In this document: piece by piece, positions 13,175 to 64,000 of the stretch | Numbering within the stretch: position 1 is the first letter of the stretch | Layout: every line of letters begins with the position of its first letter | IMG/VR virus record: IMGVR_UViG_3300021254_000027 | Span: 1 to 64,000 of that record | Reading direction: 5' to 3' (one strand) | DNA from: a virus | Taxonomy: Duplodnaviria > Caudoviricetes | Length of the DNA: 64,000 nt | Translations under genes and position numbers: made by a program | Notes under the pieces: model-generated | Told to the model about the DNA's origin: nothing | The model's input: the letters and a program-made list of their open reading frames with translations, nothing else | The model's database searches: none

Positions 13175-13763
13175 GATTGCAGCGAAGTTTGAAAAGATTA
13201 GTAAGTATGCGGATGATAAAGACATTATATGCCCTTTGCGCAAAACAAATACCAGCGCAGGTTATGACTTTTATTGCGCAGAAGATACTGTAGTTCCATC
13301 ATATTCTTCTGCCATTACTGCGGATTTCGCAAATGATCTCGTAAAAGATATGCACTCTTATTATGAATCATTTGAGCAGTTTTTAGAAAGCCTTCCATAT
13401 GACCTTAATACTGCTGCAACACTTGTTAAGAAATATGGACACAAGATGACTCTTGTTCCTACTGGTGTTAAGTGCCGTATTCCAGATGATTATTACCTAC
13501 AGTTAAGTGTGCGCTCTAGCTTGCCGCTAAAGCACTGGTTGATTATGGGCAATGGCGTTGGGATTATAGATGCTGATTATTATAATAATAGCGATAATGA
13601 AGGCCATATATATTTTGAATTGATAAATCTGTTACCTTTTGACGTGGTTATTAAGAAGGGCGATTGTATTGGTCAGGGCGTTTTTCTACCGTATGGTGTG
13701 ACCGAAGACGATCAAGGTAACGATGTTGAGCGCACTGGTGGATTTGGATCTACCAATGAGTAA
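13167..13763 (+). CDS. dut: Trimeric dUTPase with an ~40-aa insertion
   Basis: Motifs SAGYD, RSS, GIIDADY, IGQG, RTGGFGST. Confidence 0.95.
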   Translation: MNKIAAKFEKISKYADDKDIICPLRKTNTSAGYDFYCAEDTVVPSYSSAITADFANDLVKDMHSYYESFEQFLESLPYDLNTAATLVKKYGHKMTLVPTGVKCRIPDDYYLQLSVRSSLPLKHWLIMGNGVGIIDADYYNNSDNEGHIYFELINLLPFDVVIKKGDCIGQGVFLPYGVTEDDQGNDVERTGGFGSTNE

Positions 13764-14250
13764 AACAATTCTTGCGCTAGATTAGGCCACCAAAACATCA
13801 GGGTGGTCTATCTGGCAAGATGGCACCCTGATCGAATATGGTCATGTAACATTTGATTAGGAGGATCCTTTTATCCGCAATAATAAACTTTGTTCATGGC
13901 TTGGTAACATGATTGAAACACGAGATGTAGATGAAGTTGTGATTGAAGATATACAAATGCAAGTTAACAATGTTTTAACATTTTAGCGGCTTGCATAGCT
14001 TCAAGGTGCAATTATTGATATGTTAATTGATTGGCATATTGATTATAAAATTATTAAACCATCTGAATGGCGAGCTGCATGTAATTTCTTGAAAGGTCAA
14101 GATAAGCATCGTGCTTCATAGAAAAAAATTGCACAAGATTGGGTTTTGTCAACATATGGACGTAAATGTACCCAAGATGAAGCAGATGCAATTTGTATTG
14201 GACATGCTGTGGTTCAATAGGAAGATAGTGAATTAAACTGGGAGGATTAA
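13756..14250 (+). CDS. ruvC: RuvC-like Holliday junction resolvase (164 aa, six in-frame TAG=Gln; absent from the ORF track)
   Basis: MSKTILALD*ATKTSGWS...VVIEDIQ...TF*RLA*LQGAI...PSEWR...K...DEADAICIG. The acidic RuvC-type residues are present. TAGs at 13783, 13858, 13984, 13996, 14119, 14218; stop TAA 14248-14250. Confidence 0.88.
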
Positions 14251-14251
14251 T

Positions 14252-14647: not shown

Positions 14648-14693
14648 AAAAAATTGGGGCGACTCTTAATTGAGTCGCCCCATTGTTTTTTTT
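14646..14693. terminator. Bidirectional intrinsic terminator between the convergent arms
   Basis: A-run, perfect stem TGGGGCGACTC / GAGTCGCCCCA (14655-14682), T-run. Confidence 0.92.
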
Positions 14694-15219
14694 AATTATG
14701 AACAGGTAATGCTCTAATTCTTTCATCCCAAAGATCCATATGACCATTGCCGCCTAGTTTATGATAAACCGCGAGTCTCTCATTATATTGAATCAATTCA
14801 GCATGAGTTATATAGCCATGTTCTATGAATGTATTACATGCAGTAATTAAATTTTGTAAATGTGCGTCCAACACACCTTGTCGGACTGCATCAATATCTT
14901 CTGCATTCTTTAATTGCTAATTATGAAGAGCAGAAATATCAGTCTGCCACTTTTCATCCATGGCATTTAATTTTGCTAAAATCTAGGTATCCATAGCATT
15001 GGATTGCTCTTGAATTTTAGCAAAGTGCTTGCCGCAAATTTCTTCATGAACATTAGAAGAACGAGCGATACGTTCCCATTCTTCTTTTTTCTATTGATCA
15101 TTACCTTTTTTAATTGGGTTTATTAATCGTGCAGCAATTAACCCAACTATTGCTGCACATATAAATGGAATGATCCATTTAACAAATGTTTCTAATATTA
15201 ATGGTCCTGCAACCGCCAT
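14692..15219 (-). CDS. Membrane-anchored, possibly lysis-associated protein (175 aa, 3 TAG)
   Basis: GAGGAG RBS; MAVAGPLILETFVKWIIPFICAAIVGLIAARL TM helix; coiled region; C-terminal YHKLGGNG motif of the kind seen near phage lysis genes. Confidence 0.7.
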
Positions 15220-15238
15220 CACAGTCACTCCTCAGAAG

Positions 15239-15550
15239 TTATTCTTCCTCAAGATAAACGTCATCACTCGAGTTCTAACTTACATCAGGCGCGCATTCCG
15301 CAACAGCCTTATAGCTTTCGGCTATTTTCTTATAATTTTCTACTCCAGCTTTGGCAGTATACCCAAGGCGCAATGATACATAAGCAGTTGTCATATATGC
15401 AAAAATATTCTGCGCGAACGCCCCAAGTTCAGGTCGTATTAACAAAATGATTAAAAGCGTAATTGTTAATAACGCATAGACTATTATATCAATAATTGTT
15501 AATTTTTTACTAAATTCAAGGGGCTTTTTGACTATTTTCTTTCTAGCCAT
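15239..15550 (-). CDS. Two-TM holin-like membrane protein (103 aa, 1 TAG)
   Basis: EFSKK + two hydrophobic helices + YTAKAGVEN; TAG 15275 read-through to TAA 15239. Confidence 0.65.
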
Positions 15551-15561
15551 TATATCACCCC

Positions 15562-15608
15562 AAAAAAAATAAGTCCTAATTAAGGCAGCACTCTTAATTA
15601 GGGCTTAT
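15562..15608 (-). terminator. Intrinsic terminator
   Basis: ATAAGCCCTAATTAAG / CTTAATTAGGACTTAT stem followed by a T-run on the - strand. Confidence 0.75.
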
Positions 15609-15619
15609 AATTTTTATAA

Positions 15620-15925
15620 TTAAATTACGAAATTAAGATTCATATTAACTGACATATTGTCGCCATTAAGGTTTTCATCAATATTTTGAATGGTGGCTTC
15701 AATATCAGCAAGAGTATAAATAGACTCACCATTTTCATTTTTAAGTTCGATGCTATTAATGCCACTTACACCGATAGTTTGCAAAAAAGCAACGGTGGAA
15801 GGAGAAGGTATAACACCAACATAACCATAAGAATTTGCGCCTTCTGCATTAAAAGAAGTAGTACGACTAAAAGAACTAATCTCAAAAGCATGAGCTGATT
15901 GATCATTAAGAACCATTGAAATCAT
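15620..15925 (-). CDS. Hypothetical protein (101 aa, no TAG)
   Basis: GGAGG RBS, TAA stop. Confidence 0.8.
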   Translation of the reverse strand: MISMVLNDQSAHAFEISSFSRTTSFNAEGANSYGYVGVIPSPSTVAFLQTIGVSGINSIELKNENGESIYTLADIEATIQNIDENLNGDNMSVNMNLNFVI

Positions 15926-15983
15926 AAGAGTATCCTCCCTTAAAATAGTTAATCAACAGAAGCATTAGACTCCTCTATTTTCT

Positions 15984-16021
15984 ATTCAAAAAATAGATTC
16001 AATTCTTGAAGTGAATTGTCC
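15984..16021 (-). promoter_or_regulatory. Putative phage late-promoter motif, copy 1
   Basis: GGAC-N8-TCAA-N13-TTTTT-GAAT; same spacing at 33223-33260 and 43304-43341. Confidence 0.5.
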
Positions 16022-16084
16022 TTTACCCAATCTTCATAGTCATTATCATTCCAAAACACAGGACAAAAAACTGTACACAATTTA

Positions 16085-17080
16085 TTATTCCTCCTCATCT
16101 GGAATATTCACGCCATCAGCAATTTCTTGTTCAGTACGTTCTTCGCCCTCAATAGGCTCTTCATCTTCAATTTGAATATCTGTATTATATACTGCCCAAG
16201 AAGTTTCTGTATCATCAGTAGTAGGTCGCAATGTATTATTATCTAAATGGCATTCATATTCAATACCATCTAACATTACATGATCTCCATACTGATAAAT
16301 TTGGCCCTCTTGCCACTCAGGAATAATTTTATTCCCTTCAGCATCAATTTCTGTCCAAGTTAATCTTGTACCAGGAGTTGTAGTATTAGTATAGAAATTA
16401 GAGAAATAATATTTCCCTTCATACTCTACACAAGCGCCATATTCATATGACTGTCGTGGAACCCAAGTTGGAAATACTGGCACTCCTGTAGAAGGCTGTG
16501 GAGTAGTTAAATTTTTCCAAGGCGCGTGTGCTACATTTGGAGGATAACAGTTATTAACACTTTCTGATTCATAAATAAAATCTCCATATTTAACTTGATC
16601 TCCTATATCATATCCAGATTTATCATCTTCTGGTGGATACCATGGAGGAATAAAATTAATTTTTTCAAACTTATCAGAAACAGAAGGAGCATTTAAAGTA
16701 TCGGTTAAATGATTTAAAAGAACTTTATATAAATATCCTTTATGTCTATAACGCATTCCAGCAATAACATTTAATCCTGGGCGCCAAGCAGGATAAAGAA
16801 TTAAATGCGCAACAGCTTCTTCATCTGAAAAATCTGAGAGTAAAATATTTAATTCTTCTCTTGTTGCTTTTGCATTTACAAATGAAATTCCAGAATCTTC
16901 AAAAGCAATTTGAGCCATTGATTTTTGGAATAATTCATTGCCAACTCTATATAGCCGAAAATAATCGATCGCCGCAGCTATACTGTCTCCATTATAATAT
17001 GTTGCACTATCAGGCAAATCCATGAACGCAACACTTAAAGACGCGCGATCCTCATTTGATATTGATAATAAAAATCCCAT
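16085..17080 (-). CDS. Protein with about 4 CBM5/12 (ChtBD3-like) carbohydrate-binding repeats (331 aa, no TAG)
   Basis: Repeats W....Y..GD.V.Y.G..Y (e.g. YDIGDQVKYGDFIYES, WQEGQIYQYGDHVMLDGIEYEC); GGAGG RBS. Confidence 0.75.
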   Translation of the reverse strand: MGFLLSISNEDRASLSVAFMDLPDSATYYNGDSIAAAIDYFRLYRVGNELFQKSMAQIAFEDSGISFVNAKATREELNILLSDFSDEEAVAHLILYPAWRPGLNVIAGMRYRHKGYLYKVLLNHLTDTLNAPSVSDKFEKINFIPPWYPPEDDKSGYDIGDQVKYGDFIYESESVNNCYPPNVAHAPWKNLTTPQPSTGVPVFPTWVPRQSYEYGACVEYEGKYYFSNFYTNTTTPGTRLTWTEIDAEGNKIIPEWQEGQIYQYGDHVMLDGIEYECHLDNNTLRPTTDDTETSWAVYNTDIQIEDEEPIEGEERTEQEIADGVNIPDEEE

Positions 17081-17090
17081 ATAAACCTCC

Positions 17091-17621
17091 TTAAGATATG
17101 CGTTCCCACATTTTTACAGTAATAAATGGCATTATATTATTATGACCGACTGCTCCACCCCAGTCTTCAAGCCATCGTCCACCAGTCCCACTAGTAGAAG
17201 TATAGTCATAATTCGCTGAACCAGAAGATGCAGCTCTTGCACCAAGTCGATGACTATGAGATGGAATTTCATAAACTGTTAATGAATGTGTTGCTTCAAA
17301 AGGATTTATATCTTGCTATGCAGTATAAGTATCTCCTGCGCCAACAATAATACGTCCACCAGGATAATAGGTACTTGTTCCCAATGATTTCCAAGTAGAA
17401 CCAGATACAAGAGAAGAAGGATTAAAAGAATCACTAATAACCCCATACTACGCCATAAAAATACTACCTACTGGATGCATTGCTGATGCAACACTATTTT
17501 TTAAACTATTTAATTTACTTGCTAAAGTAGATCCATTAACATAAACCCAAGATTGCCCTAGACGAGGGAACAATTTATTTTCTCCTGCCGCATCCCATAA
17601 CTATGCAGATATTGTAGCCAT
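17091..17621 (-). CDS. Baseplate/tail Gp10_C-like protein, paralogue 3 (176 aa, 3 TAG)
   Basis: HPVGSIF...W...GRIIVG...ATHSLTVYEIPSHSH...GHNNIMPFITVKMWERIS; start overlaps the upstream TAA. Confidence 0.8.
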
Positions 17622-18151
17622 TATGACACCCTCTTCCACATATAATAAGCAACACTTGGCTATATATTATTATGAGGCTAGCCTCCACCATTCGCGGCAC
17701 TCCAGTTGCCACTATCACCACCAACTCCATGGTCAGCATCTCTAGAACCGCCATAGTTAACTCTACTAGTATTACCATACATACGATGTCGATGAGGTGG
17801 TAATTCCGCAGTTGTTAAAGTATGAGTAGCTTCTCCTCCTGTCGCTTCAGTTGGATCATCCGTAGTCCCATCGCATGTTAAAATTGTTCGGTTCATGCCC
17901 CACTTTTGCCAAGTACCGATACTACTTGGTGCGTTATTATTTTTAGTAATAATAATAGTACCAACAGGATAAGCAGTATTTAAACATTGAGTTGTAAAAC
18001 GAGAACTGCTTTCCCAATAAGATAATAATGTATTTAAATAAGTTAGAGCGCCATTTGCTGCGGGACTTTCTATATATATATCTTTTGCAGTAGTAACTAC
18101 AGCTTGAGGAGTAGTTTTACTGGCCTCATAAATAATTGCGCTTTGTGCCAT
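17621..18151 (-). CDS. Baseplate/tail Gp10_C-like protein, paralogue 2 (176 aa, 2 TAG)
   Basis: YPVGTI...GGEATHTLTTAELPPHRH...GGG*PHNNI*PSVAYYMWKRVS, TAA at 17621. Confidence 0.82.
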
Positions 18152-18163
18152 TTTAATTCCTCC

Positions 18164-19309
18164 TTAAGCAGTTCGTACCCAAGCACATGCAGTAATATAT
18201 GGTTGCATATTATTATGCGCAGTACCAGATCCTGTAGTTCCAGACCATCTTGCCGCAAGACTCCCACCACGTCCAGCATCATAATCGTTTGAACCACCTG
18301 ATGATGATCTATTACCAGTACTATGTGAATGATTTGCCATTTCATAGACAGTTAAAGAATGAGCAGATTCTCCCCATTGTTGAGACACATCTGTTGTATT
18401 AAATTGATTATACATATTATCAATACGTACATATAAATCAACTACAGTGCTAATTCCATTTGCTGCGGAACCATTGGGCCAAGGAATACCATTCTGATAT
18501 ATAGCCATGGTCGCGAGTCCATACCACCAGTCTCCGCTCGTATTACAGTTTCCTACTGCACCAGCATTGCCATTTCGTGATAATACTAGTCCGCCCCAGC
18601 TGTTATAATTTTTCCAAGGTACATATAATCCTTGCAAATAATTACTTACAGTATCATTTTCATCCTCATATCCTTCAGTTTCTGTTCCATCTGTCATTGC
18701 TTTTGATACTAACCCTGGCGGAGGATAATGATATCTAAAATTAGCTCTTTGACGCCAACGTCCATTATGAGTATATTCGGTACTATTATCTAATCGGACC
18801 CAAAACTCATAAGCCTACGTTTCATGAGAAACTTGGCTGCTAAAATTTTCTAATCTAGACCAACATTTATCAGTAAGCTCTCCAGTATTTAACCAATTTG
18901 ATGCAGTAAATACTCCACCAGAAGAAGTATCCTAATGAAAAATATGATCCCAGTGTGATACGGTTCCATCAGCAAGTGTTAAAGTAACAGCTTCTCCTGC
19001 AATAGGATAAGAGTCACTATAACATCCAAGCGTATACCCACTTGGTAACTTACTCCAAGTTCCGCCCATAATCGACGCAGGATTGACGGAACTTGAAGTA
19101 GTAGTATATATTGACCCAACTGGATATGAAGCTAAGATAGCACTTGGAACCAAATTATTTATTGTAGTCTATAAATTTTCTCCACTAAAAGTTGTGCCAG
19201 AGACATTAGACCAAATATCATTCGCTATTGCACGAACTGATATAAAATCTTCACTTGCAATAGGATAAGAGCTGGCTGCAGCTTTAGTGTTTGTTTTTAA
19301 TGCTATCAT
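18164..19309 (-). CDS. Gp10_C-like protein with an inserted fibrinogen/lectin-like domain, paralogue 1 (381 aa, 3 TAG)
   Basis: YPVGSIY...GGTW [insert] GESAHSLTVYEMANHSH...AHNNMQPYITACAWVRTA; joins three track fragments in one frame. Confidence 0.8.
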
Positions 19310-19320
19310 AATTAAACTCC

Positions 19321-22518: not shown

Positions 22519-22530
22519 TGTAATTCCTCC

Positions 22531-24846: not shown

Positions 24847-24858
24847 TTGACTCCCTCC

Positions 24859-28379: not shown

Positions 28380-28389
28380 GATAAATAAA

Positions 28390-42302: not shown

Positions 42303-42323
42303 TTATATTACTCCTTTCTTTAA

Positions 42324-43259: not shown

Positions 43260-43303
43260 TATCTCTTCACTTCCTTTCAAACTAAGTATCTGTCTCTTTA
43301 TAA

Positions 43304-43341
43304 GATAAAAAATAAGCCCGAATACTTAACGCATTCGGGCC
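43304..43341 (-). promoter_or_regulatory. Terminator hairpin coinciding with putative late-promoter motif, copy 3
   Basis: GCCCGAATGC-GTTAA-GTATTCGGGC-TTATTTTTT; also matches GGCC-N8-TTAA-N13-TTTTT. Confidence 0.6.
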
Positions 43342-43352
43342 AATAGTATTTA

Positions 43353-45353
43353 TTAAGTTGCTGTATAACTTCGAGTATCTTGTCCAGTTGTTACTAAACC
43401 ATATTTAGTCTTTTCTATTGTTAAAGTATATGTCCCAGTTGCAGTTGGTCTATAGGTTGGAGTTGTTGAGCTCGTTAAATTGCTCCAGCCTTCACTGTTC
43501 CATCTATATCTATAAGTGGCTGCTGAATCCCAATTCTGAACAGACCCTTGTATTCCACCATCAAAAAGTGAAGTACTGACTGCCGGAGGGGTAAGTGCTG
43601 CGCTGACAGCAGTAGCAGCAGCTTCTATAATATCGTTAACAGTTGTACCACTATCTTGGACTGTATGCCCGTTATTACCCCAAGTAACAATATTGTTCGC
43701 TACAGCAGTTGCAATACTATCAATTTGTCTAGTATTAACAACCTTATTTAAACCAATAGTCTCAGCAGTAATATTATGAGGGTTGCTTGCAGTAGTATGA
43801 GTATTAATCGCACTTTCAATTTTCGCAAAAGCACTATTAATGCTATCTGTTTCTTCTATCCCTGTTGTAGCCAATGCAGAGATCCCTGTTAATGCGAGAG
43901 ATCCAACATTAGATCTTGATACAGTAAAAGCACCAGATGAACTGCTTAATGTTAATCCAGTAATTACATTGCCTGTACCTGTATCTGAAAGTGAACAAGT
44001 TGGAATAGTTACTGTTGTAGCATCTAGCGCGGTGATATGACCAGCTTGATCTGTAGACATATAAGGGACATTAAACGTCATACCAAACTAACTTGTTGGA
44101 ATTGAAGAGGTTCCTACATTAGTTTTAGTGCCAAGACCATTTAAAGCATGTCCAATAGTAATCTTTTTATCATTCGCTCCAGCGATATTAATCCACTTAT
44201 TGCCGCCTTCAATAGCAAAACTATCGACATAATTTGCTGCTGAAAAACTACTAGTATTACCAGTTATAGCAGTAGCTGCAGAACTATTACCGGCTGTTAC
44301 GGTTTTAAAACCATAAGGCAAAGTATAGGCAGTAGTAGATCGAGCAGTTATATGTCCTGCTTCATCCTAAGAAAAATTATAAATGATAAAAGTTCCTGTC
44401 GCGCTATTAAAATCGACTCCAGCATTTGGAGTAGTCTAAATATTCTAAATTAAATGCGCTATAGTAATTGTATCATTTTCCGCATTGCCAGCGAATCTAA
44501 TCCATTTATTGCCCGCTGCCAAAGTAGCAGTATCTACTTGCGTATCAGCTACAATAGAAGTGGTATTAGTAGTAATATCAGTTACAGCTGTCGCATTACT
44601 AATTGCAATGGTTTTAAAGTTATACGATAAAGTTAAAGTCCGTTTAGTCTAAGAACGAATATGCCCAGCTTCATCCCAGGTTAATTCATAAGTTACAAAT
44701 GTTCCGCTATTATTTAAATCAGTTGTCACAGTTTTTGATGTATCAATACTACGAACTAAATGCCCAATAGTTAATTTATCATCTGCAACATCTGATGTCC
44801 CACTCGCCGCAAGTTTAATCCAAGTATTGCCTGAATTAATAGTTAATGTGTCTTCATTATTATCTGCCACCATAGATCCATTTACGGCGTCTAAATTATT
44901 AACAGCATCAGAAGAGCCCGTAGTGACTTGAATGGTTTTAAACATGCGCAAATCTTTAATGCGCTCATCAACAGTTTCAGTTCTATCATTTAAGATATAA
45001 GCTAAATCTGAAATTGAATCCATGTTTGCGGCTGGCGTTGACTATGTAGAATGCCCATTTGTTGCAGAAGTTAATGCTGCTAATACGCTAGGATTACGAC
45101 CATATAATTCACGTAAAATTGTATCATAAGATTCTAATTTAGTAGTTAAACGTTCGGTACCAGATTGGCCCAACTAAACATCTGCTGCATGAATCAAAGC
45201 AAATGTATTACCATTCTTTTGAGTTAAACCTGCCGCCAATAATACTGTACCATCATAAGTACGAGGTTTTGCTCCGTCTACTCCTTGAACTTTACTGTAA
45301 TCATAAGGAGTAGTATATAAATTTTTATTAAATACATTATTTAAAGTAGCCAT
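43353..45353 (-). CDS. Tail fibre protein with FKT...GN.WI...ITI.H...D.AGHI repeats (666 aa)
   Basis: GGAGG RBS; MATLNNVF start; fragments 44649, 44088 and 43353 in one frame. Confidence 0.8.
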
Positions 45354-45366
45354 TTATATATCCTCC

Positions 45367-48189
45367 TTAACTTAACACAACAGATGTAGATCCAAGATTC
45401 TTATTTGAACTCTGCCAAATAGTATATGAAGCAGTTTCATTATATTCATTAGTAAAATTGATATTTCCTAAATTATCAAAACCGCCTTCAAAACCGCCAA
45501 CCTTAAATATTGGACGCGCCCATGATGCAGGACACAAATAATAAATATGCTCTGTAGCGCCAGCATTAACAGAAATAGTTTTACTTATTTTTGCAGTTGC
45601 AAGAATACTGCTGAATGAACTTAGATTAGTGCTCAACTTACTAAAACTATTTAAATTAGCAAGAGTATTATCATCACCGACGCCCCAATAGGCGCGATAC
45701 GCCCAAGTTGCTTTTACACTTGCAGTTTTAGTTACATCTCTTTCGTCTGTTACACTCAATGTCCAAGTTATAACTGTGCTAACAGTTTTACCAGTAATTG
45801 CATTAGAATCTGTTACCGTATTAACCGCGCTTGCATCATATTCAGCTTTATTAGTAACATAATAATTTTTCTCAAAAACCGCTGAATTAGGAGTATAAAC
45901 TGTTACTCCATCACTACGTGTAATTTTTAAATCTTGACGAGGACCTTTATTTAAAGTATATGATAAAGAAATATTATTTAATCCTTTACCAGCTTCAATT
46001 AAAATATTATTACCACTCTATTCAGCATCAGAACTAGTGATCTTAAATGAATTAATCATCTGTTCAACATACTGGATATCTGCCATTTCATGTTGCATTT
46101 TTTTAATTGCTTCTCCTAAAGTATCTGTTGCAGTTACTGCATGCAAACAACTATTTCCATAATAGCCCTGTTTTGCAGTTCCATTAACTGTATAATTAAC
46201 ATCAAAATATCTATCTGATGCAGTATTATTATAACTTAAGTCTAATGTATCAAGAGTATAAGAAACAGTATAACGCCAATTTCCTTTATTATCTAATAAT
46301 AAGTTACCTAAATTATTATTAATAATTTGCGGTACAATATCATTATATGGAAATTTAGTTTCTGCCATAGTAATTTTACCAGTGTCCGCAGTTGTAATGA
46401 CAAAACGGTTTTTGGCAAGATTCATATCTACGTTTTCAATCATATCACGCGCGCGATTAATCATACCAATCAAAGTACGATCATCGCGTGAGTCTTCATT
46501 ACTTAAATTAAGACCGACGATACGATTTACTAATGCAATCGCTCCACGCACTGTAGATGGAGATCCAAAACTTAAATCATTTACTACTGCTTCTTGTCCA
46601 GTATTTGGACGACCAACAGGTTTTGTAGCTTGATATACTTTAGTAAAGCGGAAATGAGGAACTTCTGGATTATTATTATAATAAGCCTCTCTACGATAAT
46701 ACTGAGTCCCAGCAGGAAGAGCAGATTTATTTGCGACTTTATATGCGCCTACAGTATCATCAAACCAGTATTCGCCATTTGCGTCTTTAGTCCATATGTT
46801 TGTATAAGATGGTAAATAATAACTTCTTATATTGTCATCTCCACCAGTATGAGAATCTTGGTAAAGCATCATTTTATTAAAGCGCATAGTATTACCTGCG
46901 CTAGTACCAATACCATAATAAATATCTTCATCCGCGGTATATTGCAAATGATTCGCAATCGCATGAGCTTTTTCTATTGCAACAGTATTTTCACTTGTGC
47001 GCTAAGTTAATGCTTCATTACCTAAACTATAAGTGCGACCAATTAATGCAGTCATCGTATTGGCGCGACCAAAAATACTATCAGAGTCAATAGTACAATT
47101 AGCTTGATTACCAAAATCTTCTTGCAATAATTGTAATAAACGCTATTCAGTAAACATTGCATTCCAAACTTTAGCAATAGCATTACCAATACCAGGTAAA
47201 TGAATATACCAAGAATAAGTATCATTCGCAGTTACACCATTAGTTCCAACTGCTGCGTTTTGTTCTCCATAATATTTTTGCCCGCTTGATTTAAAAATGT
47301 AATTAATTGCATTTTTTGGCTCTTCTCCATTTTCAGCTTTGCGCAAATAGTTGCGGTCCATAGTAAAGCCTAAGTCATTCCAGAAAATATCTCCATGGCC
47401 TTCTTCTTCCCAAGTCTCCCAAGTAGTTCCACTATTTTTATATTCGCCAGTTCGATAAGTAATATCGGCATCTGTCTCAATAGCATATTCTCTTTCAGGA
47501 GTTAATCTTGGTGCTGCAACGCTACTTCCTAAAGTATGAATTTCATGACCAAAAACCGCTGGAGTGTGCATATAATAATCTAATGTTGTGCTATTGCCAT
47601 CAAAGTACGGAGAAATAGGCTTAGTATTTGGTGGATCAATTACCAAATGGAAATTAGGAACTACTGTATTAAGTTCAGCTATCATAACATAACGATAGTT
47701 GCCAGTAGTAGTATCTACATGCTTCATCCAAACAGTAGAGTCATATCCACGTCCATAATTAGTAACATCTGTATTATATGCCGCGGCAAATGGACTTGCA
47801 TTTGCGGCAGTATATGGCTAATAATTTAATTCGTTAGATGACCCAGTAGAAGTACAAATATAAAAGCTATTCGCGCTATTCTTCTAAAATAAATCTTGAT
47901 AAATTTGGCCTTCGACTTTAGTTAATAAAGTACTAATATCAACTTCTGTATTATCAACAATTGCACCAGAAGGAGTGGTTTCATGAGTAAAATGTACATC
48001 ACCATAAAACTCGCCATCATAATAATAGCCAGTAATAGGTGGTTCATCATACTCAATTAAAACATAACGTCCGATAAATACTCCATCAGTAGCACATTGA
48101 CTATCCATCATAGTGCGAGTTTTATAAACTCTATCGAAAGTGAATGCAGTTCGATTCGAAGCTGATATATTACCATAGAATCCTGCCAT
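45367..48189 (-). CDS. Putative baseplate/tail structural protein (940 aa)
   Basis: MAGFYGNI...FTFDRVY...DGVFIGRYVLIEY; YGRGYDSTVWMK; four fragments in one frame. Confidence 0.75.
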
Positions 48190-48194
48190 TGCAC

Positions 48195-48527
48195 TCACTC
48201 CGTTTCATATATAAAATCAATAATAATATAAGCATTTTGGTTATTGCCTATTGTTTCAAGAGAACCATTATCAAACATGATACTGGTAATATTGGCAAGA
48301 CCTTCAACACTTAATTCATAAATACCAGTAGCGCCTACTACAATAGGAGTTTCACTAGCATTTAAATAAAATTTGGTTCCTGGTAAAGTCTACACACCAA
48401 GTTGTACAATGGGATATGTGCGCGGAAAGGCTGTGCCATTCCGCAACATATCCAAAGTCAAGGTGGCAGGATAATTGTTTTTTACGCCAGGACCAAACCA
48501 ACGAATTTGACCAACTTGCTTCGCCAT
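48195..48527 (-). CDS. Small tail/baseplate protein (110 aa, 1 TAG; absent from the track)
   Basis: GGAGG RBS; MAKQVGQIRW...VQLGV*TLPGTKFYLN...GATGIYEL...AYIIIDFIYETE, TGA. Confidence 0.78.
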
Positions 48528-48541
48528 TATCCTTTTCCTCC

Positions 48542-51500
48542 TTAAATAATTCTATCAACTGCGCGATTTGCAGTAATAGACATCATTCCATCATGCTAAA
48601 GCTATATACTAAACGATTTAATTAAGTATTCTCCGTCAATACCGCTTTGATTATCATGAACTCTAATACGAGTATTTGGTTCTAAATAATAAATTGGAAT
48701 TGCTGAGATAGTAACTGTTTCTTGATAATATGTCGCATCATATAACATAGAATCTAAAACTTCTTTAGCGCTTTTCCCCTACGCACTCATTTTAAAGTAA
48801 TCTGAAAAAGGAGGTACAAGATTAATACGAGCATATGCAAGATTTTCTTCTCCTTTAACAGGTTCATAATCTGTACTTACAAATAAGAGCTAAGGAGTCT
48901 CTCTAAAGTATATGGCTTTAACATCTTTATCATTAACAGATTTTGAACGACGACCAATCGCTTCTACCGAATATTGATAAAGATTCATATCTCCGCTATC
49001 CTAATCAAAGAAATCAATCCAGAAAAATAATGATTCTGGTTCGACAAAAGAGATTGTATTATTCGATGAGTTCCATTTTACATATTGCGGATTCCAATAT
49101 CCATTTTGTTCCCATTCTGCATAATCATCTACTGTGTTATCTGTATACTCCATTCGCCCATCGTCGGTCTAATTCGTTGTCCCATTATCATTATAAACAG
49201 TTTTAACTGTTTTCTAAGTACGATATAAATGCGGCCAAAATTCTAACATATCGGTAAAATAAGCATCATAACCAGTATTAAAAGTATCTTGCCAAGCATC
49301 TAATTCACTTTGAGTTTTGTCTATATAATTTGATGATTTAAATTCATTTAATAATGCTTCTTCCAACTCTTGATTACGAATAATCTCAGGAAGTGGCATA
49401 TATTCATCTTCATCATAAGTTGTATCATCTGGGACTTCAATAACTGTTGTAACATATTCATCCCAAGTACGAACCGTTTGTTTTGTAGTAGTATAATAAG
49501 TATGAAGTTGATTCCGAATTTCATCAATAATTACCAACAACTAATTTAATGATTGCGGCTATGTATAATGTTTACCAGGGAATAACATAATACTTATATC
49601 AAATAATGAACTAGATACTACACTAAACCCATATGAATCTCTACGACCAGTAGTTATACCAGTTAATCCATAAGCACGACCGACTGCATTTAATACAGAG
49701 CGTTGCGCTCGACTTAATTGAACATCAAAATAATCATCATCCCAAGAAAAGTCAAATAGCTCTAATGTTTTACGTTTAATATTTTCATCATCTACATAAT
49801 TTAAAGTGGTTAACATATTAAAAATCATACCATTATCATATGAATAGCCATTTCCATCATGTCGAATTGTAGAATCTGCCCATCCAGTTTGAGTAATCGC
49901 ATAATTAGCTGCGGCATATTCTGGACGAGTGCCTTCTGGATATTGCCCAGCCAAATCATTATTAACAATCTATGGATCTACTAAAGCCATTTGAGCTAAT
50001 GCAATTTTAATATAACTACTAAACATTTCTAAAACGAATAAATACTATTCAACTTCCTAAGCCGGCACATCCATTGGCTCATATTCATCTGTGCCTACAG
50101 TAATTTTTACTTCACTTTTTTCATAAGCTGGTGTTTCAACAATTTCTGATCTCGTAACTTTTTGCACTACTGTTTCTAAATGTGTACCAACAGGAGGCTT
50201 AACACTATCATCAGGTTTTTCAATTTCACCAGAGATAACAGGATAAGTTTGTGCCAATGAATAGTCATATCCTAATTTTGCATTCATTTCGGCTAATTGA
50301 GATTCTGTTAATTGTAAATTAATTTTATTTACATCTGGGCCATATAAAAAACGCTTATTTAAAATAGCTTGCTCATATTCTTCTTCACTCGCTAATGCGA
50401 CAAATTCCTATTTAAGATCATCATAATAATAATAGTCTTTATAAGATGCCGCATTTAAAGAATCATAATCATAATGAAAACGTAATGCTTTTTCATAAGG
50501 AGCTAAAGCTTCACCAATAATGCCCTTTCCTATTGCTTGTACATAATTGGTTTGTGTTTTTAAAGCCTATATCAACCCAGCAATTTTTTCTCTCGCGGCA
50601 AGATTATCTCTTGCCATCTAATAGATTAATTCACGCCAATCATATTGCCCGCCAACAGAATAAGACTAATATGGTTTTTGTTCTAACAAACTATAATAAA
50701 CTTGCGGCTTATGGTCAATAGCATAACGTAAATGAATTGGAAGAGCTTTCCCCCCAACACCAGTTAAATTGCCCCAAACTGCAAAATCGTTTTTAATAAC
50801 ATTAATCTACGGTTTATTCTAAAAACTTTCAATTAAATAACCATCAACAAAATCATAAATACTGTTACTACTATTAGCGACGCTATCATAATAAGTTTCA
50901 TTATCATTTACAATAGCATTTGTCCAAGTTGAATTAAAATAAATTCGTTTACGCTAAAAGATAAATCTACCGTTAATGTCATAAAAATATTCAAACTCTC
51001 CAAGCATTTTAACTATTTTATCAAGCATTTCTGTGATAGTACCACCAATAGCAACAGTTAATTCTCCAGTATAAGTAATATCTGTCGCACGATAGCCAGC
51101 TGTAGTATTTATTTCATTAGGGTCTACCCGTTTTAATAATACATACCAAACGCCACCGTATAAGATTGGTGCTAAATTACTGGTTACTCCTTGTGCTTCA
51201 CAAGCTGCTTCAAATAAACCTTCACGAGGATCTGAGCCAGAACCAAAAAGTATTTGAGTAGATTCAGCTTCTGTAAATACTGGAGTTCGAGTTTGTTGTA
51301 CACCAGAAAATGTACTTCCGCTACTACCAGTAAAATCCCAACTAATGCCATCTAAATATTCTGTAACTTCACTATCTTCAAACTAATTAAAGATATATAA
51401 AATAGAGTCATCAGCAATATAATCTAATAATTCTACACCGCAAGTGTCTAAATCATTAATTACAATATTACGATACGGTTCTTGAGCATATTGATGGACA

Positions 51501-52033
51501 GCTTCTCTAATAATATCATAAATTGGGATTAAATCTTTAGTCACACTACCATCAGAATGAGTTGTATAAATAGTACTAAATTCATGCGCCGCAAATAAAT
51601 TACCAGATATATCTCCATTGATAAGACACATCTTATCTTTACCCTAAATAGTGATAGTATATCCGCTATTATTTAAAGTAGAACTAAAACTACTAATAAC
51701 ATACATTCCCTGCGGGAACCATATTATATCTTCATATCTTGGATCAATAGTATTCCGCAATCCAAGTTCAACAGTAAATTTAGTATTTAAACTCCAAGAG
51801 ATTTCTTCAATTTGTACTTGATTTGTAATTAAAGTAATATTACAAGTACGACGGACCTTAGAAGAACCATCTACATTAATCGAACCACTAACTACATTAC
51901 CAGTAATTTCTGCTACAGATTCTTCGTCCCAGTTAAGAGAAATGATTTTAGCAAATACTTCTTTATTACGATGCTAATCTAACTTAATTAAAAAATCTTT
52001 GTCTAACAAAGCAAAAGTATTACTTAAAGCCAT
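48542..52033 (-). CDS. Baseplate hub-like (DUF5048-like) tail protein (1163 aa)
   Basis: GSINVDGSSKVRRTCNI...WFPQG...I*GKDKMCLING...FEYFYDINGRFIF...IKNDF.VWG...IPIYYLEPNTRI; four fragments in one frame. Confidence 0.7.
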
Positions 52034-52037
52034 TTAC

Positions 52038-55000
52038 TCACCCCCCAAAACGAGGCTTACCCATTTTACCAGAATCTTCATAAATTACTCCTTCATTTTT
52101 AGAAGAAGTGGGCTTTGTAGTTGATGTTGAAGTTTGATTAATTTTATTTATATCTACACCTTCAAGTTCTAATACTGCTTTTAACATTGATAAATAATTA
52201 TCTCGCACAGAACTATATTCAGCATAAGTAACAAAAGGTCCATTATAACTATGATCTTTACTATATGTACTATAACTATAAGGTACCCAAATATCCTATC
52301 CAGTAAAAGCAGTCCGCTCTTCACGAGTCAAACGATCAAAATGCTGAGTGTTTTCATTCCAAACAAAATATGAATTATCTTCATACATTCCATCTGGCAC
52401 ATTATTTACTAAAGCTTTCGCGCCCTCAGTAATATTAATCAACTATAACTAGTACGCTGCATAATCGCGCGCAATAGCGTTATATTGTTTCCAAGCATTA
52501 TACAAACTTTCGTTAAGCCCAAGAGCAACCTATTTAGCTTTGTCTCCTTCTTCAACACCATACGTTAAAGTTAAGAGTTGATAAATAAAAATAGGTTGTA
52601 CTTTAGTGCCCCAAGCCATATAAGTTGGTACCCAAGATGTTGTAGGAACATGATAAGAACCAGTTTCTGCGATATCAATAATCTCATTGTCTAAGCAAAT
52701 TTGAGTAGGAGACAATCTATATAATGTTCCATCTGGCTATTGAACTGGGACATAAGGCCGTCCATTATTAAATTCATATAAAAGATTTGCATCTGCATCA
52801 AAGATATAATAAATATCTGTACCAGGGACAGTAAACATAGCATTATTTACAAATAAGTCTCTACTACTTCTAGTGCCATATGGCAATACGCTTGAACTAC
52901 TTTCAGTTTCTTTAGTATCTTTATCTTGTTCAAATTCAATACTCCAAACTCGAACTGCTCTATCTAATAAATAAGTTGATACTCGCTCATTAAATTGATC
53001 AATCGCATTTTTTTCTCGTGGAGTCGCACTAAAATGGTAAGTCTCTCCAAAAGCTTGTAATGATCCAATTTCATATACCATATCACTTAAAGTAAAATCC
53101 ATAGAAACAATACCACGTATCTAATCTTTTAAAGTAGAAATAGTATCCATATAATTATTACCAGTCATAGAAGAACTAACTCCTAAATATGATGGACAAT
53201 GTACTACATCACGTTGTACAATTTTAGTTACCCCATCAAATACAGTTGAGTCTCTAGTCCAAGTACCAACCGTAACCTATCCAGGCATATCCTTCCATAC
53301 ATTTAAAAGTTTAAGATTAGATACTGCACTATCTTCATCAAACTAGATTTCATATTGACCAGTTGCGCCAACAAGATAATTAGTTACACCATCATAAGTA
53401 AACCAAACTTCGCGGCCAGACATTCCAGCGTCTCGATAATCTGTACTAACACAATCTTCAAATCGAATATACTAACATTTATTACCTTTAAGAAGATTGG
53501 TATTTTTAAATTCTTCAATAGCCTTATTTAAAGTTTCTTCTGACACATTAGTTAAATCAGAAGAACCTTGAATAACAGAAATCAAAGTATTTAAATAGTC
53601 CGCAAAGTTAATAACGCCAAATCTAAAAGCAAGAGTCGCATCTTTATCAACAGATAAAAATCCATACTCTCCTAGCTTAGAAGGAGAATAAGCATCAATT
53701 TCATCAGCTGTACAAGAGAAAGTATGAATCATGCGCGAAAGCGTATCATTTGGAACTAATGAAACATTTGATAAACGCACAAGATAATTACCTTCTCCTG
53801 GACTTCTAAATAACTTAATATTACCGTCGTTAAGCCAATTCAGAACTTCTAATTTAAAACGACGTTCATAAGCAATATTATCATCAATAATATCAGTAGT
53901 ATTGCTCCACCATTTATCCATTTTTAAATCTTCTGTGCGGCTAAGGAAAAATTCATTTTCATCACTTAAATAAGAAATTAATCCAGATATAGGAAACTCT
54001 TTATATTCTACATTACCATTTCTAAAGAAGAATGGATATTTACTTCCTAATGTATTTTTCTTAGTATCTTGAATAACAGTTTTAAATGAAGTAATTTTAG
54101 GATTAAAACGAATTTTTAACTGCCGTTCACCGTCATATAAAAAAGCATCTTCAAATACTACATATACATCAGGCGCATACATGCGCGTAGAATAAATATC
54201 ATAATTGTTAAATTGCTAGATAGAATAACGATATGTTTGTCCTTGTTCAACAGTAAAATCATGAAAAACTGCGTTAGCCGGTAACATACCAGTTAAATTA
54301 AAAGTAGCAATTTGAGTTTGAATAGTAAAATCTTCTGCGCTAGAACAGCGAGAAATCATAAACATACCATTATAAGTAAGTTCAGTTTTATTCGGATCAT
54401 TTGGTTTTAAAAACAAGTCTACACAGCCATTATCATAATCTAACTGCGCAATAAGATGCGCATCAATTTCAGGGACAACAGATGAACCACCTACAATAAT
54501 ATAAAGAGGTCCATTTACCTATAAACCATTCTAAGTAATAACTGAATACTATAAACGATAGCGTTCATCATCTTGGCAATTATAATTTAATATAAAACTA
54601 TCAGTAGATTCATATTGCGCATCATCGGTGTTAGCATTATGAACTTGCCAATCTGTTGTAGTTAATACTTTTCCCGCAGTATCATATAATGTAAAACGGT
54701 ATTGATAACATTTTTCAGAAGGATCATTAATATTAGAATAATGTCCAACATAATATGTAACATCAATATTCGCACTATAACGATTTAATCCTAGACAAGA
54801 AACAGATGGATATGCAGTACATTTAACAATACTAATTGTAGAATAATAGCCTATATTACTTGCATCTGCTGCATCAATATAGGCTAACTAAATTTTATAA
54901 TATTTTCCGAGATTAATCCCTTTAATATTGGTTAAATCAAATTCTGCATAACTATAACTTGTAGAAACGCTGTAAACAGTAGCATTTACTCTTCCCAATT

Positions 55001-55172
55001 CAATATCTGTTTCGCCATCACGGATTCGTAATTTTACTCCTCCAACTTCAGAAGCAGTAACTAATTTATTAAATGAGAAGGGGACTGTTAAAATATAGCT
55101 CCCTGTTTCTGAAACATAAAAAGGAGGAGTTGTACCCGCTAAAACTGGCGGGTACAACTTCATAGTAGCCAT
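52038..55172 (-). CDS. Distal tail/baseplate (Dit-like) protein (1044 aa)
   Basis: MATMKLYPP start; D.TVEQG..YRY; LKIRFNPKITSFK...TLGSKYPFFFRNG...KLFRSPGEGN; five fragments in one frame; TGA at 52038. Confidence 0.68.
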
Positions 55173-55174
55173 AA

Positions 55175-55561
55175 TTAGCCCTCCTCGTCAATAATAAGCT
55201 CCATAGCTTCAAGCTGCTTAGGCGTGAAATTCAAATCCTCAATCAAAGATACAGGGATCATACGCAAGGCGACATCAGCAGTAAACTTATTAAGTTCTGC
55301 ACGAGCCTCTTGACATTCCTGCTCTTTACCTTCAATAATCTTAAAGATGCCAGGCTCAGTTTGGATAAACTGGCCATTTTCATCTGTCTGTAAATACTTC
55401 TGCGCGAATGCGCGCTCTTGTTCAATATAAAACTCAGTTTCCTTAGCAAGCATTGCACTGTTTTTTGCAATCAAAAGGCTAAGCTTGAAAGGAAGTTCCT
55501 TATCCTTTAAAGTATCGAAAACCTCAGTAAGGTCATTAATCTGTCGAAAATTAAGTTCCAT
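55175..55561 (-). CDS. DUF1617-like small phage protein (128 aa, no TAG)
   Basis: LPFKLS..IAKN...L..E...R...Y...DENG pattern; AAGGAG RBS. Confidence 0.65.
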   Translation of the reverse strand: MELNFRQINDLTEVFDTLKDKELPFKLSLLIAKNSAMLAKETEFYIEQERAFAQKYLQTDENGQFIQTEPGIFKIIEGKEQECQEARAELNKFTADVALRMIPVSLIEDLNFTPKQLEAMELIIDEEG

Positions 55562-55585
55562 AAAATAATCTCCTTTTTCTCTTTA

Positions 55586-61500: not shown

Positions 61501-64000
61501 AGCTTTTAATCTTAAATTTACGAGTAATCGCACGAATACGATCATTATATAGAGAACTAGCTCCTTCTAAAATAGGCGCTAATACGCTATTTGATAATTC
61601 GGCATCGGTAGGGACTGCCCACTAATCAATCATACTTAATGATGTAGGTGGTTGCCAATTAACTTCTACTCCATTATCATCTGGATCATAAGTCATTGGA
61701 GAATAATTGCCAGTATCATTATTACGAATCCAAACCTACACATAATACCAATAATCATTATATCTTACATTGTCTTTATCTTTAAGAACATAATTATTTT
61801 CATCATAAACATAAAAATCTCGTAAGCTATTATCTTCTACTATATTAGTAATACCATTTTCATCAGTTTGTGCCCGCAATAATCTAAATGTAATTTCATT
61901 TAAACTATCAAGACTGCTAGTTTCAATAGAAGAATCTACATTAGTAAAAATAAGAGGCTCGGTTTCATATGGCACATCATTTACAGTTACTATTGCTTTC
62001 CATTGTTCGCGTGCGCGAGAAGCATTAGGAGTTACTCTATAAGTATCAAAATCTTCTCCAGTAGTAGACTCTAAATATTTCCAATTTAATCCGCCTTGTC
62101 TCTCAGCTAAGACGCTAGTATCTTGCAAACATCCATACTCATAATGATACCATTGAAGCTTAGCTCCTACAGCATCTTCCCAATATTCAAAAGAAGATAA
62201 ATCGTTATCATTTTTCTTTGCATAATGAGTAATTAAAATTGCTCCAGCATCAGTTAAATGTACCCAAGCAAATTTTAAAGTTTTTTCAGTTAATAACCAT
62301 TCATATCCAGGCTGTTCCGCATATTTATTTGTTATTTCTTTTATTTTTGCACTTTTTTCTACTGTATTTAAAGTCGAATCATTCTAAATGCTTAATATAG
62401 CTTCTTGATAAGTGCTATATTCTTGGGTATAAGTCAAAGCATCTGTACCGTATTTAATATCATCATAAGTATATAAAAATACTCGATCAGTAGTGCATTC
62501 ATCTGTTGTTAATCCCAATAGTGCAGATAAATTACTTACTTGAATATTAGATGGAATATTTTCATAAGGTATTTTCTATCCATAGACGTCCCAAAAATCA
62601 TGGTCTTGCCAAAAGAAAACTCTAATTGATTCAAGAGTAAGCATATTAGAAATATCAAAAATCTTCTATTGAATTGTAGGCTCATAAAATCCATAAGTAT
62701 TACCATACATATCTTCATTAGTAAAATAAAGAGTCTGAATTGTAGATACAGATTTTTCTTCTTCAGTTGGACGAGTTTTCCCTTTTAACTCAATACGTAA
62801 TCCATATCTTCCTCGCGCAGGACGATATTTTGACAATAAGGTTTTAAAATTTGCCGAAATCCCTAATTTAGTTTCAGCTAATGGGATAGTAGGATTTTCA
62901 TTATCCCACTTCCATAAAAAATTTTTATTGTCTACATCTAAACTAGTCGCCTCATAATAATCATTGATTGATTGATTATATGCGGCGACAGTAGAAGAAT
63001 ATGCTTTGTTAATTGGATCAGTATATTTATCATATACAGATTGTTCATAAGTTTTTAATAAATTATATTCTTCTTCAGTCCAATAATAATCAGTATCAAT
63101 ATGAGCATCTTCTAAATACTAATCAAACATATTTTCAAATTCGATGCTCGTCGTATCTGCATTATTTAAAACTTGCCCCAAAGCATTTGTGTATAAAAAG
63201 TCTATTAAAGAAGTAAAAGCCTTTTCATAATTTGTTGGTTCTGATTCTGTGCCATCAAGAGAATTGTACTATAACTAAAGTTCATTAATTCTTTTATTAT
63301 GCTATTCAATCAATTGATCTATCTGAGCCTTACGTTCTTCAGTCGTTAAAGATGTATCTTGAGCAATATCCTATAAAGAATTACGATATTGTTTTTCGGC
63401 ATCTAAAATATTTTCTTCTAACTCTTTAACTTTTGCTACAGTTAAATACATTGCACTCTACTCAGGGCTATAAAAGTTTTTTGTCGTCCAAGAAGTAGTC
63501 ACATCATTTAAATGAGAAGATGCAATGTAAACTCCTCCATATCGATTATAATGAGATTCAATTGAACCCTATAGTCTTTGATGATATCTATTATACACAC
63601 TTAAAATATTCTAATATGTTGAAATTAATGAATCATCATATAGATTTTTTAAAGAATCTAACTAATTTATATAATCTTGTTCATTTTCAGTCTTACATCC
63701 ATGTTCTGGTTTATTGGCCAAATAACCTTTTGATGTAAAAGTCGAATCGTGTGTTAAATCTTCTAAGCCGACAAATCTATCAAAAGGCATTTTGAAATTA
63801 AAATTGTAAGTTGCTGCTTCGGTGCCAGCATCTACTTTTCTGCCAATTATATATTTTTGTTTAGTAAAATCTCCCATTGGAACCATTACGTAAACGACTT
63901 CGTTTTCATAATAAGTTGCAGTATCTTGAGTATACGCATCAAATTTACCATTTTCATACTCTACTTTATAAATACCTTCACTCTTCCGAGCAGTAGAAAT
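55586..64000 (-). CDS. Giant tail tip/central fibre protein, start outside the window (>2804 aa, many TAG)
   Basis: Nine track fragments (63662, 61736, 60866, 60374, 59924, 58745, 58160, 56747, 55586) share one frame. Spot checks of the gaps found only TAG. AG.KD.NN.FTGVVMG...GFIGKSG.GQI motif; Gly-rich C-terminus. Confidence 0.8.

Follow-up and report, generated by a model that had tools for sequence, protein, structure and literature searches.

Late genes of a predicted ruminant-gut siphophage in which TAG is a sense codon and appears to encode glutamine

The DNA analysed here, which we call the window, comprises bases 1-64000 of the 105,542-bp IMG/VR virus record IMGVR_UViG_3300021254_000027, and our study concerns the meaning of the codon TAG in the late genes that it carries. 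In these genes TAG is a sense codon, its use is partitioned by gene module, and comparison with related phages supports glutamine (Gln, Q) as by far its best-fitting meaning. We consider it highly probable that the late genes of this phage, which would infect a host using the standard code, employ TAG as Gln, with an amber suppressor tRNA (anticodon CUA; hereafter tRNA(CUA)) that would act as a timing lock. An initial annotation of the window had proposed a change of code from TAG stop to TAG glutamine (code 15) from position 13756 onwards; the observation behind this proposal was confirmed and its reading is supported for the late genes.

TAG as a sense codon in the late genes

Coding density was compared with and without TAG as a stop, as the initial annotation had suggested. 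Under translation table 11, open reading frames (ORFs) of at least 100, 200 and 300 amino acids (aa) cover 70, 45 and 28% of positions 13756-64000; with TAG as a sense codon these values become 99, 90 and 90%. The same treatment of TGA yields 74, 46 and 28%, which is no gain at the 300-aa threshold, and that of TAA yields many short ORFs and few long ones (39%). For bases 1-13755, 74% lies in ORFs of at least 300 aa under table 11, and the value is the same with TAG as sense. Of the 25 genes in 13723-64000, 20 contain in-frame TAGs, about 155 in total; over the whole 105.5-kb record, with genes closed at TAA or TGA only, 71 genes reach a coverage of 96% and contain 349 in-frame TAGs.

Comparison of the table-11 ORF lists with the read-through frames bears out the earlier statement that minus-strand fragments end in TAG and resume in frame. 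The rebuilt minus-strand genes from 14692 to the end of the window lie end to end or share a few bases with their neighbours, and every one of them stops at TAA or TGA. A ribosome-binding motif (AGGA, GGAG, GAGG or AAGG within 20 nucleotides (nt) upstream, often as AAGGAGG) precedes 25 of the 36 window genes, compared with 10% of random positions, so that this part of the initial description holds as well. TAGs are placed evenly along the genes, and their +4 base context resembles that of CAG. In random DNA with a GC content of 35%, TAA and TGA alone would be expected about every 19 codons, an estimate from base composition, and the open frames recovered here span 1,044 to 2,878 codons; chance is therefore excluded.

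We also considered that the TAGs might be genuine stops, either in a decaying or mis-assembled phage that carries pseudogenes or in genes made as short fragments, since the region is fragmented under table 11 and the record lacks a suppressor tRNA. We regard this as having a negligible probability, and pseudogenes and assembly error were rejected. First, the frames are broken by TAG only, never by TAA or TGA, over ~50 kb and 155 sites, and the frame is always kept. Second, read-through restores full-length PHROG and Pfam matches, and contigs from the probable source sample show 0 differences over 44001-64000. Third, the same architecture is found in at least 15 independent TAG-recoded relatives from other samples, recovered from 17 portal-gene loci in IMG/VR, and TAG itself is conserved at homologous positions (33 of 381 columns in the window and 122 of 806 elsewhere in the genome).

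The two plus-strand features that frame this argument are as follows.

375..13763, plus strand: early replication and nucleotide-metabolism module, identified by Pfam and readable under both codes
13723..14250, plus strand: RuvC-like Holliday-junction resolvase, matching phrog_827 (E 5e-20) and phrog_159 on read-through

The early module encodes Toprim primase-like, RecJ-like exonuclease, SF1 helicase, DnaE-type Pol III alpha, guanylate-kinase-like, NrdD, NrdG and dUTPase proteins (Pfam), and its gene order is that of Enterococcus phage VRE9_4. Its 4,304 codons include 90 CAA, 60 CAG and no TAG, with seven TAA and four TGA stops. It had been claimed that none of 15 intact plus-strand ORFs stops at TAG; no TAG stop was indeed found among them, and the count proved approximate, there being 13 real plus-strand genes in 375-14647, all ending at TAA or TGA. 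The frame at 12093-12680 holds a lone TAG (12123), upstream of a table-11 start at 12153, and the relatives have TAT or AAA there; the longer form that includes this TAG is thus unlikely to be genuine, which probably leaves the early module entirely without TAG. The sole recoded plus-strand gene of the window is the resolvase gene (13723-14250), with six in-frame TAGs at 13783, 13858, 13984, 13996, 14119 and 14218. The family match appears only when the six TAGs are read through, and the database copy of the protein carries PF02075.

The distribution of synonymous codons points in the same direction. TAG, CAA and CAG occur 330, 600 and 150 times in the 26,498 codons of the late genes, and 1, 90 and 60 times in the early genes. 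TAG and CAG together make up 44% of the Gln-like codons of late genes, against 40% for CAG in early genes; Gln-like codons amount to 4.1% of late codons when TAG is counted and 2.8% when it is not, the early value being 3.5%. The 2,878-aa gene at the right end of the window has 43 TAG, 71 CAA and 5 CAG, versus 0, 7 and 18 in the TAG-free gene at 31139-33136. There is almost no CAG in TAG-rich genes, and it is retained in TAG-free late genes. The share of Gln codons that belongs to CAG has passed to TAG in the late genes.

Outside the window, in the right arm of the record (94.8-105.5 kb), small plus-strand genes with good ribosome-binding sites end at TAG. Among the table-11 ORFs of 94856-105542, these are (genome coordinates):

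95868-96107, plus strand: early gene ending at TAG
98554-98763, plus strand: early gene ending at TAG; in the closest relative (G001) the homologue terminates there too, also with TAG
102788-102994, plus strand: early gene ending at TAG; its homologue in G001 stops at the same position, also with TAG
103255-104004, plus strand: early gene ending at TAG; its homologue in G001 aligns to the last residue and has TAA directly after it
105275-105463, plus strand: early gene ending at TAG

Judging from these alignments, TAG probably still terminates some early genes, at least three, and the genome is therefore not uniformly code 15; the proposed code holds for the late genes and not for the genome as a whole. 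Such stops agree with a switch during infection rather than with a uniform code 15.

The amino acid assigned to TAG

In the gene translations each TAG was written as X, and tblastn was used to align them with raw DNA from 18 related phages, namely five large IMG/VR records (G001-G005) plus 13 other loci. From these alignments a substitution profile was derived per amino acid (20 in all), and the likelihoods of the profiles were compared at the TAG columns. Opposite the TAGs of window genes (n=381) we found CAA 39, TAG 33, GAA 22, AAT 18, GAT 16 and CAG 13 times, and in well-aligned local contexts of the window TAG 25, CAA 19 and CAG 9 times. In the better-conserved genes of the rest of the genome (n=806), the counts were CAA 220, TAG 122, CAG 65, AAA 58 and GAA 44. 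Gln ranked first in both sets: its margin was 73 nats in the window (Glu second) and 713 nats elsewhere in the genome (Lys second), where Gln stands at 285 of 661 positions; the TAG columns thus fit Gln best and do not align to random residues. CAA lies two mutations away from TAG and is still commoner than CAG; of the codons one mutation away, TTG, TCG and TAT/TAC are rare, and TGG occurs at a single column (13996). This pattern therefore reflects amino-acid equivalence, not mutational proximity.

The cultured, standard-code phage VRE9_4 provides an outside reference. Opposite 82 aligned TAGs it has Q 21, K 10, E 9 and N 8 times (Q at 5 of 11 in window genes), and its Q residues occupy the TAG position in the motifs LD-Q-AT and LA-Q-LQG of RuvC and FFY-Q-R and GKE-Q-A of TerL. 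Against the same phage, the own TAG columns of G002, G003, G004 and G005 each fit Gln best too. In the resolvase gene, column 13783 reads CAA/TAG/TAG/CAG in the relatives, column 13984 TAG in all four and column 14119 CAA/CAG/CAA/TAG, and VRE9_4 has Q at 13783, 13996 and 14119. In the tail genes at 48542..55561, many TAG columns (for example 50954, 48779 and 54888) are TAG, CAA or CAG in relatives. In the neighbouring stretch 40782..48527, TAG 48390 aligns to TAG/CAG/TAG in relatives. A strain from goat gut has CAG in place of the TAG at 44367-44369 (44369 A>G, plus strand), as seen among 40 listed of its ~966 substitutions.

The motifs on which the earlier proposal had drawn were all located: LD*AT at 13783, LA*LQG at 13996, GGG*PHNN at 17678, LGV*TLPG at 48390, I*GKDKM at 51644 and MA*LKD at 22510. 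The alignment of SVY-TAG-SGIP at 22672 with AIY-CAG-NGIP at 18494 was likewise found as described.

The suppressor tRNA and the timing of late gene expression

The record is a fragment, with a CheckV completeness of ~61%, classed as linear in IMG/VR and with a GC content of 35%. Its complete relative G003 (165,734 bp, with direct terminal repeats) is syntenic with it over positions 44.4-154.5 kb, and ~55 kb of G003 have no counterpart in the record. This missing segment contains all 18 tRNAs of G003, including tRNA(CUA). One tRNA(CUA) is also found in each of G002, G004 and G005 (completeness 86-94%), so that four of the four near-complete relatives carry it:

G003:10186-10280 (the same as L034:10186-10280 and L081:3304-3398): tRNA(CUA)
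G002:3515-3606: tRNA(CUA)
G004:119761-119848: tRNA(CUA)
G005:162624-162713: tRNA(CUA)
L078, L079, L085, L087, L090, L092, L095, L096, L100 and L104: long tRNA(CUA)

A pattern scan of IMG/VR for the D arm and anticodon loop returned 35 tRNA(CUA) genes in 34 contigs, about half of them 72-77 nt long and 19 of 88-97 nt. The tRNA(CUA) of the clade belongs to the long class (88-97 nt, and 88-95 nt in G002-G005) and folds into a canonical 7/5 cloverleaf with a long variable arm. In a comparison of 14 distinct long forms, the extra arm pairs into a stem that shows compensatory changes, and the other stems are fully covarying. At 1:72 these forms have a weak or mismatched pair (U-A, A·C, U·U or G·U); their discriminator base is G73 in 13 of the 14, with A73 in L079. 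A weak or mismatched 1:72 pair together with G73 is the acceptor pattern of tRNA-Gln. Short tRNA(CUA) genes in other IMG/VR phages share the D arm of the long forms, and a subset, for example L097 and L099, match in the anticodon stem as well.

The following points count against a phage-encoded reading of TAG as Gln. As already stated in the initial annotation, the window contains neither a suppressor tRNA nor a release factor, and we found the same for the whole 105.5-kb record: ARAGORN and Rfam RF00005 detected no tRNA in it, and Pfam models detected no release factor (PF00472) and no glutaminyl-tRNA synthetase (PF00749; class-Ic synthetase), either in the record or in the four near-complete relatives. 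The search for a CUA-anticodon tRNA that had been proposed as a check was thus negative in the record itself and positive in each of these relatives, and the tRNA(CUA) of the phage itself is deduced from its relatives only. This tRNA has a type-II-like long arm and, by crude sequence similarity, lies nearest to tRNAs labelled Leu, Trp and Met rather than to the phages' own tRNA-Gln, so that the tRNA itself does not establish its charging identity. In the alignments, only 14% of the TAG columns of window tail genes have Gln and 9% TAG, compared with 30-36% Gln at CAA/CAG control columns; these genes evolve fast, and the signal from the window alone is therefore weaker than that of the head genes. 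Column 13996 is TGG in three relatives. HNNI-TAG-P at 17660 does align with HNNM-CAA-P at 18203, as had been reported, but a third paralogue has HNNI-ATG-P at 17130, and the paralogue evidence alone therefore allows Q or M. Finally, the assignment of Gln comes from sequence comparison.

Some of these points would also suit a TAG that is sense but encodes another amino acid, with Ser, Leu or Tyr, and further pyrrolysine, as candidates. The tRNA(CUA) of G002-G005 has a long variable arm of the kind typical of bacterial type-II tRNAs, with a conserved extra stem and compensatory changes, and A, S and E each reach 7-8% at the window TAG columns; the greater nearness of this tRNA to the Leu, Trp and Met tRNAs of the phages than to their tRNA-Gln comes from a crude sequence comparison and was used neither way. 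We nevertheless hold a meaning other than Gln to be very unlikely. Gln ranks first in every data set and for each of the four owners of a long-arm tRNA, Ser reaches only 4% (27/661) in the conserved genes, and CAA dominates over TCG, TTG and TAT/TAC. TAG fills the missing share of CAG, the weak 1:72 pair with G73 fits the tRNA-Gln pattern, and short-arm tRNA(CUA) genes elsewhere share the D arm and in some cases the anticodon stem.

A different explanation for the empty record is that TAG is read by the host, either one that uses TAG as sense or one whose release factor 1 (RF1) is disabled by the phage and whose near-cognate tRNA-Gln decodes TAG. In favour of this, the record lacks a tRNA, a release factor and a synthetase alike, and suppressor tRNAs have been reported in only 40% of TAG-recoded phages (10.1101/2021.08.26.457843). 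We judge this improbable, because the 61%-complete record lacks exactly the segment that holds the tRNA array and tRNA(CUA) in the complete relative, and because all four near-complete relatives have this tRNA. Moreover, early genes avoid in-frame TAG and some end at it, which is unlike the expectation for a host that always reads TAG as Gln. The absence of tRNA(CUA) from the record is explained by the record being a fragment, complete relatives carrying the gene in the part that it lacks. From this analysis, the clade appears to rely on the tRNA alone together with the charging enzymes of the host.

Under the preferred reading of TAG as a late-gene Gln codon, infection would proceed as follows. 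The early genes, having no TAG and the same meaning in both codes, would be read by the unmodified host, which would terminate at TAG at this stage and so leave late proteins incomplete. The phage-encoded amber suppressor tRNA (anticodon CUA) would then accumulate, be charged by host enzymes in such a way that Gln is inserted, and compete with RF1. The late genes would thereby become translatable, among them those for every large virion protein, for the sigma-like protein and for the resolvase, which is needed before packaging; the change of code would act as a timing lock. Here we infer the phage's own tRNA, its charging and its role in timing.

It is tentatively possible, if doubtful, that the amber suppressor of this clade is an unusual tRNA that combines a covarying type-II-like long arm with a Gln-like acceptor in phages in which TAG is still an early stop. 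In the literature searched, which was not exhaustive, no description of a long-variable-arm suppressor tRNA in recoded phages was found, and the text of 10.1101/2021.08.26.457843 was not found to mention one. If the extra arm alters charging, processing or protection, it would represent an undescribed adaptor design for natural code switching, which might, for instance, make the tRNA orthogonal to host enzymes or let it evade host tRNA nucleases. As a separate observation, the Leu-anticodon tRNAs (UAA, CAA and UAG) at G003:7970-8045, 9684-9759 and 9766-9841 (L034), with similar ones in G004 and G005, are only 75-77 nt long and lack the long arm that is normal in bacterial tRNA-Leu, and that the suppressor has.

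Genome context, known systems and the genes of the late block

We are confident that this phage is a DnaE-type siphophage of ~165-170 kb from the ruminant gut, distantly related to SPbeta, Enterococcus EF1/VRE9 and phAss-1. The full DNA is present in a single animal-gut metagenome, probably the source sample, and goat and sheep gut runs contain part of it, as a strain ~93-95% identical to the record; there is no RNA run among the sequencing runs listed as containing the DNA. A database RuvC protein (P0001), identical over the aligned 94% of the query, is encoded on a 170,770-bp contig that probably holds the full genome and its tRNAs. A scan of gut metagenomes with the primase yielded 130 further related loci. 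The missing part of the genome was not recovered, none of 80 metagenome relatives found with the primase query being closer than 79%. The host is most likely a member of the Firmicutes that uses the standard code, because strong Shine-Dalgarno motifs are present and the closest cultured relatives point to this group.

Recoding of TAG to Gln is known from gut phages (Borges 2021/22, Peters 2022, phAss-1 2023), as the initial annotation had noted. TAG-recoded gut phage clades include Lak, crAss-like, Garnet, Amethyst, Jade, Sapphire and Agate (10.1101/2021.08.26.457843), the timing-lock model of late gene expression by code change has been published (10.1101/2021.08.26.457843), and metaproteomics has demonstrated that Gln is inserted at TAG in crAss-like phages (Peters et al. 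2022, PMC9523058). The recoding of TAG to Gln, its late-gene bias, the suppressor tRNA and the standard-code host are thus already described, and the record by itself opens no new question. As in the phages of Borges and colleagues, TAG stands for Gln in structural and late genes and replication genes keep the standard code, with a suppressor tRNA(CUA) (here in the relatives), a predicted standard-code host and an animal-gut origin. The recoded genes here form one long minus-strand block plus one resolvase gene, unlike the scattered modules of those phages, and no release factor 2 was found, unlike in two TAG-recoded Agate phages and in Lak phages. The size range of Agate (154 ± 27 kb) includes the 165.7-kb complete relative, and mixed codes within the clade and the animal-gut source are Agate-like, a likeness that is circumstantial. 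Among IMG/VR relatives whose portal proteins are 43-54% identical, reading TGA rather than TAG as sense raises the coding density of L018 (0.37 to 0.65) and of L019 (0.45 to 0.58), and L020 is already fully open under table 11. TAG-recoded, TGA-recoded and standard-code members thus seem to occur together in the wider clade.

The human-gut phage phAss-1 (OQ749652.1; ~136 kb) has a DnaE-type polymerase, NrdG and dUTPase (PMC10607447), reads TAG as Gln in its TerL, tape-measure, portal and tail-fibre genes, and carries tRNA-Sup(CTA) genes without a dedicated synthetase (PMC10607447). Its reliance on the tRNA and on host charging enzymes (PMC10607447) matches what we propose for this clade, and it shares the wider group with Enterococcus phage EF1. 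It is nevertheless distant, with TerL 45% and DnaE 39% identical and with a different genome size and habitat. Membership in its proposed genus, Phassvirus, whose members share 80-86% nucleotide identity (PMC10607447), was rejected, the similarity being at protein level only. Enterococcus phages VRE9_4, EF1 and H1 and Bacillus phage SPbeta share with our phage the order TerL, portal, head, giant tape measure and tail proteins, followed on the opposite strand by resolvase, dUTPase, guanylate kinase, DnaE, helicase and RecJ (VRE9_4: TerL 49% and DnaE 38% identical). They differ in using the standard code throughout, with CAA/CAG or other residues at TAG positions. The code-15 crAss-like phages show the same late-gene use of TAG for Gln and offer the experimental precedent (PMC9523058), but they represent an unrelated, podovirus-like lineage with Bacteroidota hosts and other replication and transcription apparatus.

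The record provides a clean case of a genetic code partitioned by gene module, in a DnaE siphophage lineage of Firmicutes type from ruminants. It has three internal signatures, namely TAG replacing CAG, a recoded resolvase in an otherwise standard-code operon and TAG stops in early genes, all of which fit the published idea that the change of code times late gene expression. It is important to note that table 11 splits the record and its at least 15 recoded relatives into short fragments; giant tail proteins (1,000 to 4,755 aa) are therefore missed, and host-range and structural predictions fail without table 15. The genes concerned, all on the minus strand, are listed below with their in-frame TAGs.

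14692-15228, minus strand: small late gene, 3 TAGs
15239-15550, minus strand: small late gene, 1 TAG
15620-15925, minus strand: small late gene, 0 TAGs
16085-17080, minus strand: CBM_5_12 protein (Pfam PF02839), 0 TAGs
17091-17639, minus strand: Gp10_C-type tail-tip protein (Pfam PF21939), first of three paralogues, 3 TAGs
17621-18151, minus strand: second Gp10_C-type paralogue (PF21939), 2 TAGs
18164-19312, minus strand: third Gp10_C-type paralogue (PF21939), 3 TAGs
19321-22518, minus strand: tail-fibre/host-recognition gene (ORF, family matches), 1065 aa, 9 TAGs
22531-24846, minus strand: Laminin_G_3 protein (Pfam), 771 aa, 8 TAGs
24859-28314, minus strand: tail-fibre/host-recognition gene (ORF, family matches), 1151 aa, 6 TAGs
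28390-30516, minus strand: tail-fibre/host-recognition gene, 708 aa, 5 TAGs
30531-31115, minus strand: tail-fibre/host-recognition gene, 2 TAGs
31139-33136, minus strand: tail-fibre/host-recognition gene, 665 aa, CAG-rich, 0 TAGs
33475..40719, minus strand: 2414-aa tail-module protein with C-terminal BspA-type leucine-rich repeats (phrog_14959, E 2e-104), 11 TAGs
40782-42302, minus strand: coiled-coil protein, 2 TAGs
42324-43280, minus strand: late gene, 3 TAGs
43353-45353, minus strand: late gene, 7 TAGs
45367-48198, minus strand: late gene, 5 TAGs
48195-48527, minus strand: late gene, 1 TAG
48542-52033, minus strand: tail protein, 1163 aa, 22 TAGs (phrog_32343, phrog_1887 and phrog_30026 among the genes of 48542..55561)
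52038-55172, minus strand: tail protein, 1044 aa, 14 TAGs
55175-55561, minus strand: small TAG-free gene
55586-64222 (genome coordinates), minus strand: giant tail protein, 2,878 codons and 43 TAGs, of which ~2,800 codons and 42 TAGs lie inside the window
64210-78477 (genome coordinates, outside the window), minus strand: tape-measure-like gene, 4,755 aa, 119 TAGs (2.5% of codons), its ends aligning to the 2,673-aa tape measure of VRE9_4

PHROG tail-fibre and tail families were matched within 14692..19312. The phrog_14959 match of the 2414-aa protein covers residues 121-1356, and only BspA-type LRR_5 (E 3e-23), with no CotH kinase family, was found in it by Pfam at E <= 1e-3; its distant homologues (25-28% identity) are in Bacteroides and human-gut phages, and it has two relatives only in IMG/VR, where none was found for the tail proteins at 52038-55172 and 22531-24846. 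The PHROGs of 48542..55561 also label two adjacent VRE9_4 genes just before the resolvase gene. The giant tail protein, which sits just downstream of the tape-measure-like gene, has homologues in five relatives, all with in-frame TAGs, and its N-terminus resembles a VRE9_4 tail protein. Beyond the window, the minus-strand block runs on to 94,586 with the tape measure, head proteins, portal, TerL and a PHROG-labelled sigma factor; this sigma-like protein at the head of the late block has three TAGs. The tape-measure, head, portal and terminase genes of this part likewise count among the late genes written with TAG as Gln. Pfam scans gave no match for many of the tail proteins or for the PHROG 'sigma factor' at 93627-94586 (genome coordinates).

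A few late-block genes are free of TAG, namely 31139-33136, 55175-55561, 16085-17080 and 15620-15925, together with the major capsid-like gene at 80311-81426 of the genome. Possible explanations are that their proteins are very abundant, that they are needed before the switch or that the genes are recent acquisitions. In the major capsid-like gene and a few others, TAG may be absent because it is a less efficient codon and is selected against where the protein product is most abundant.

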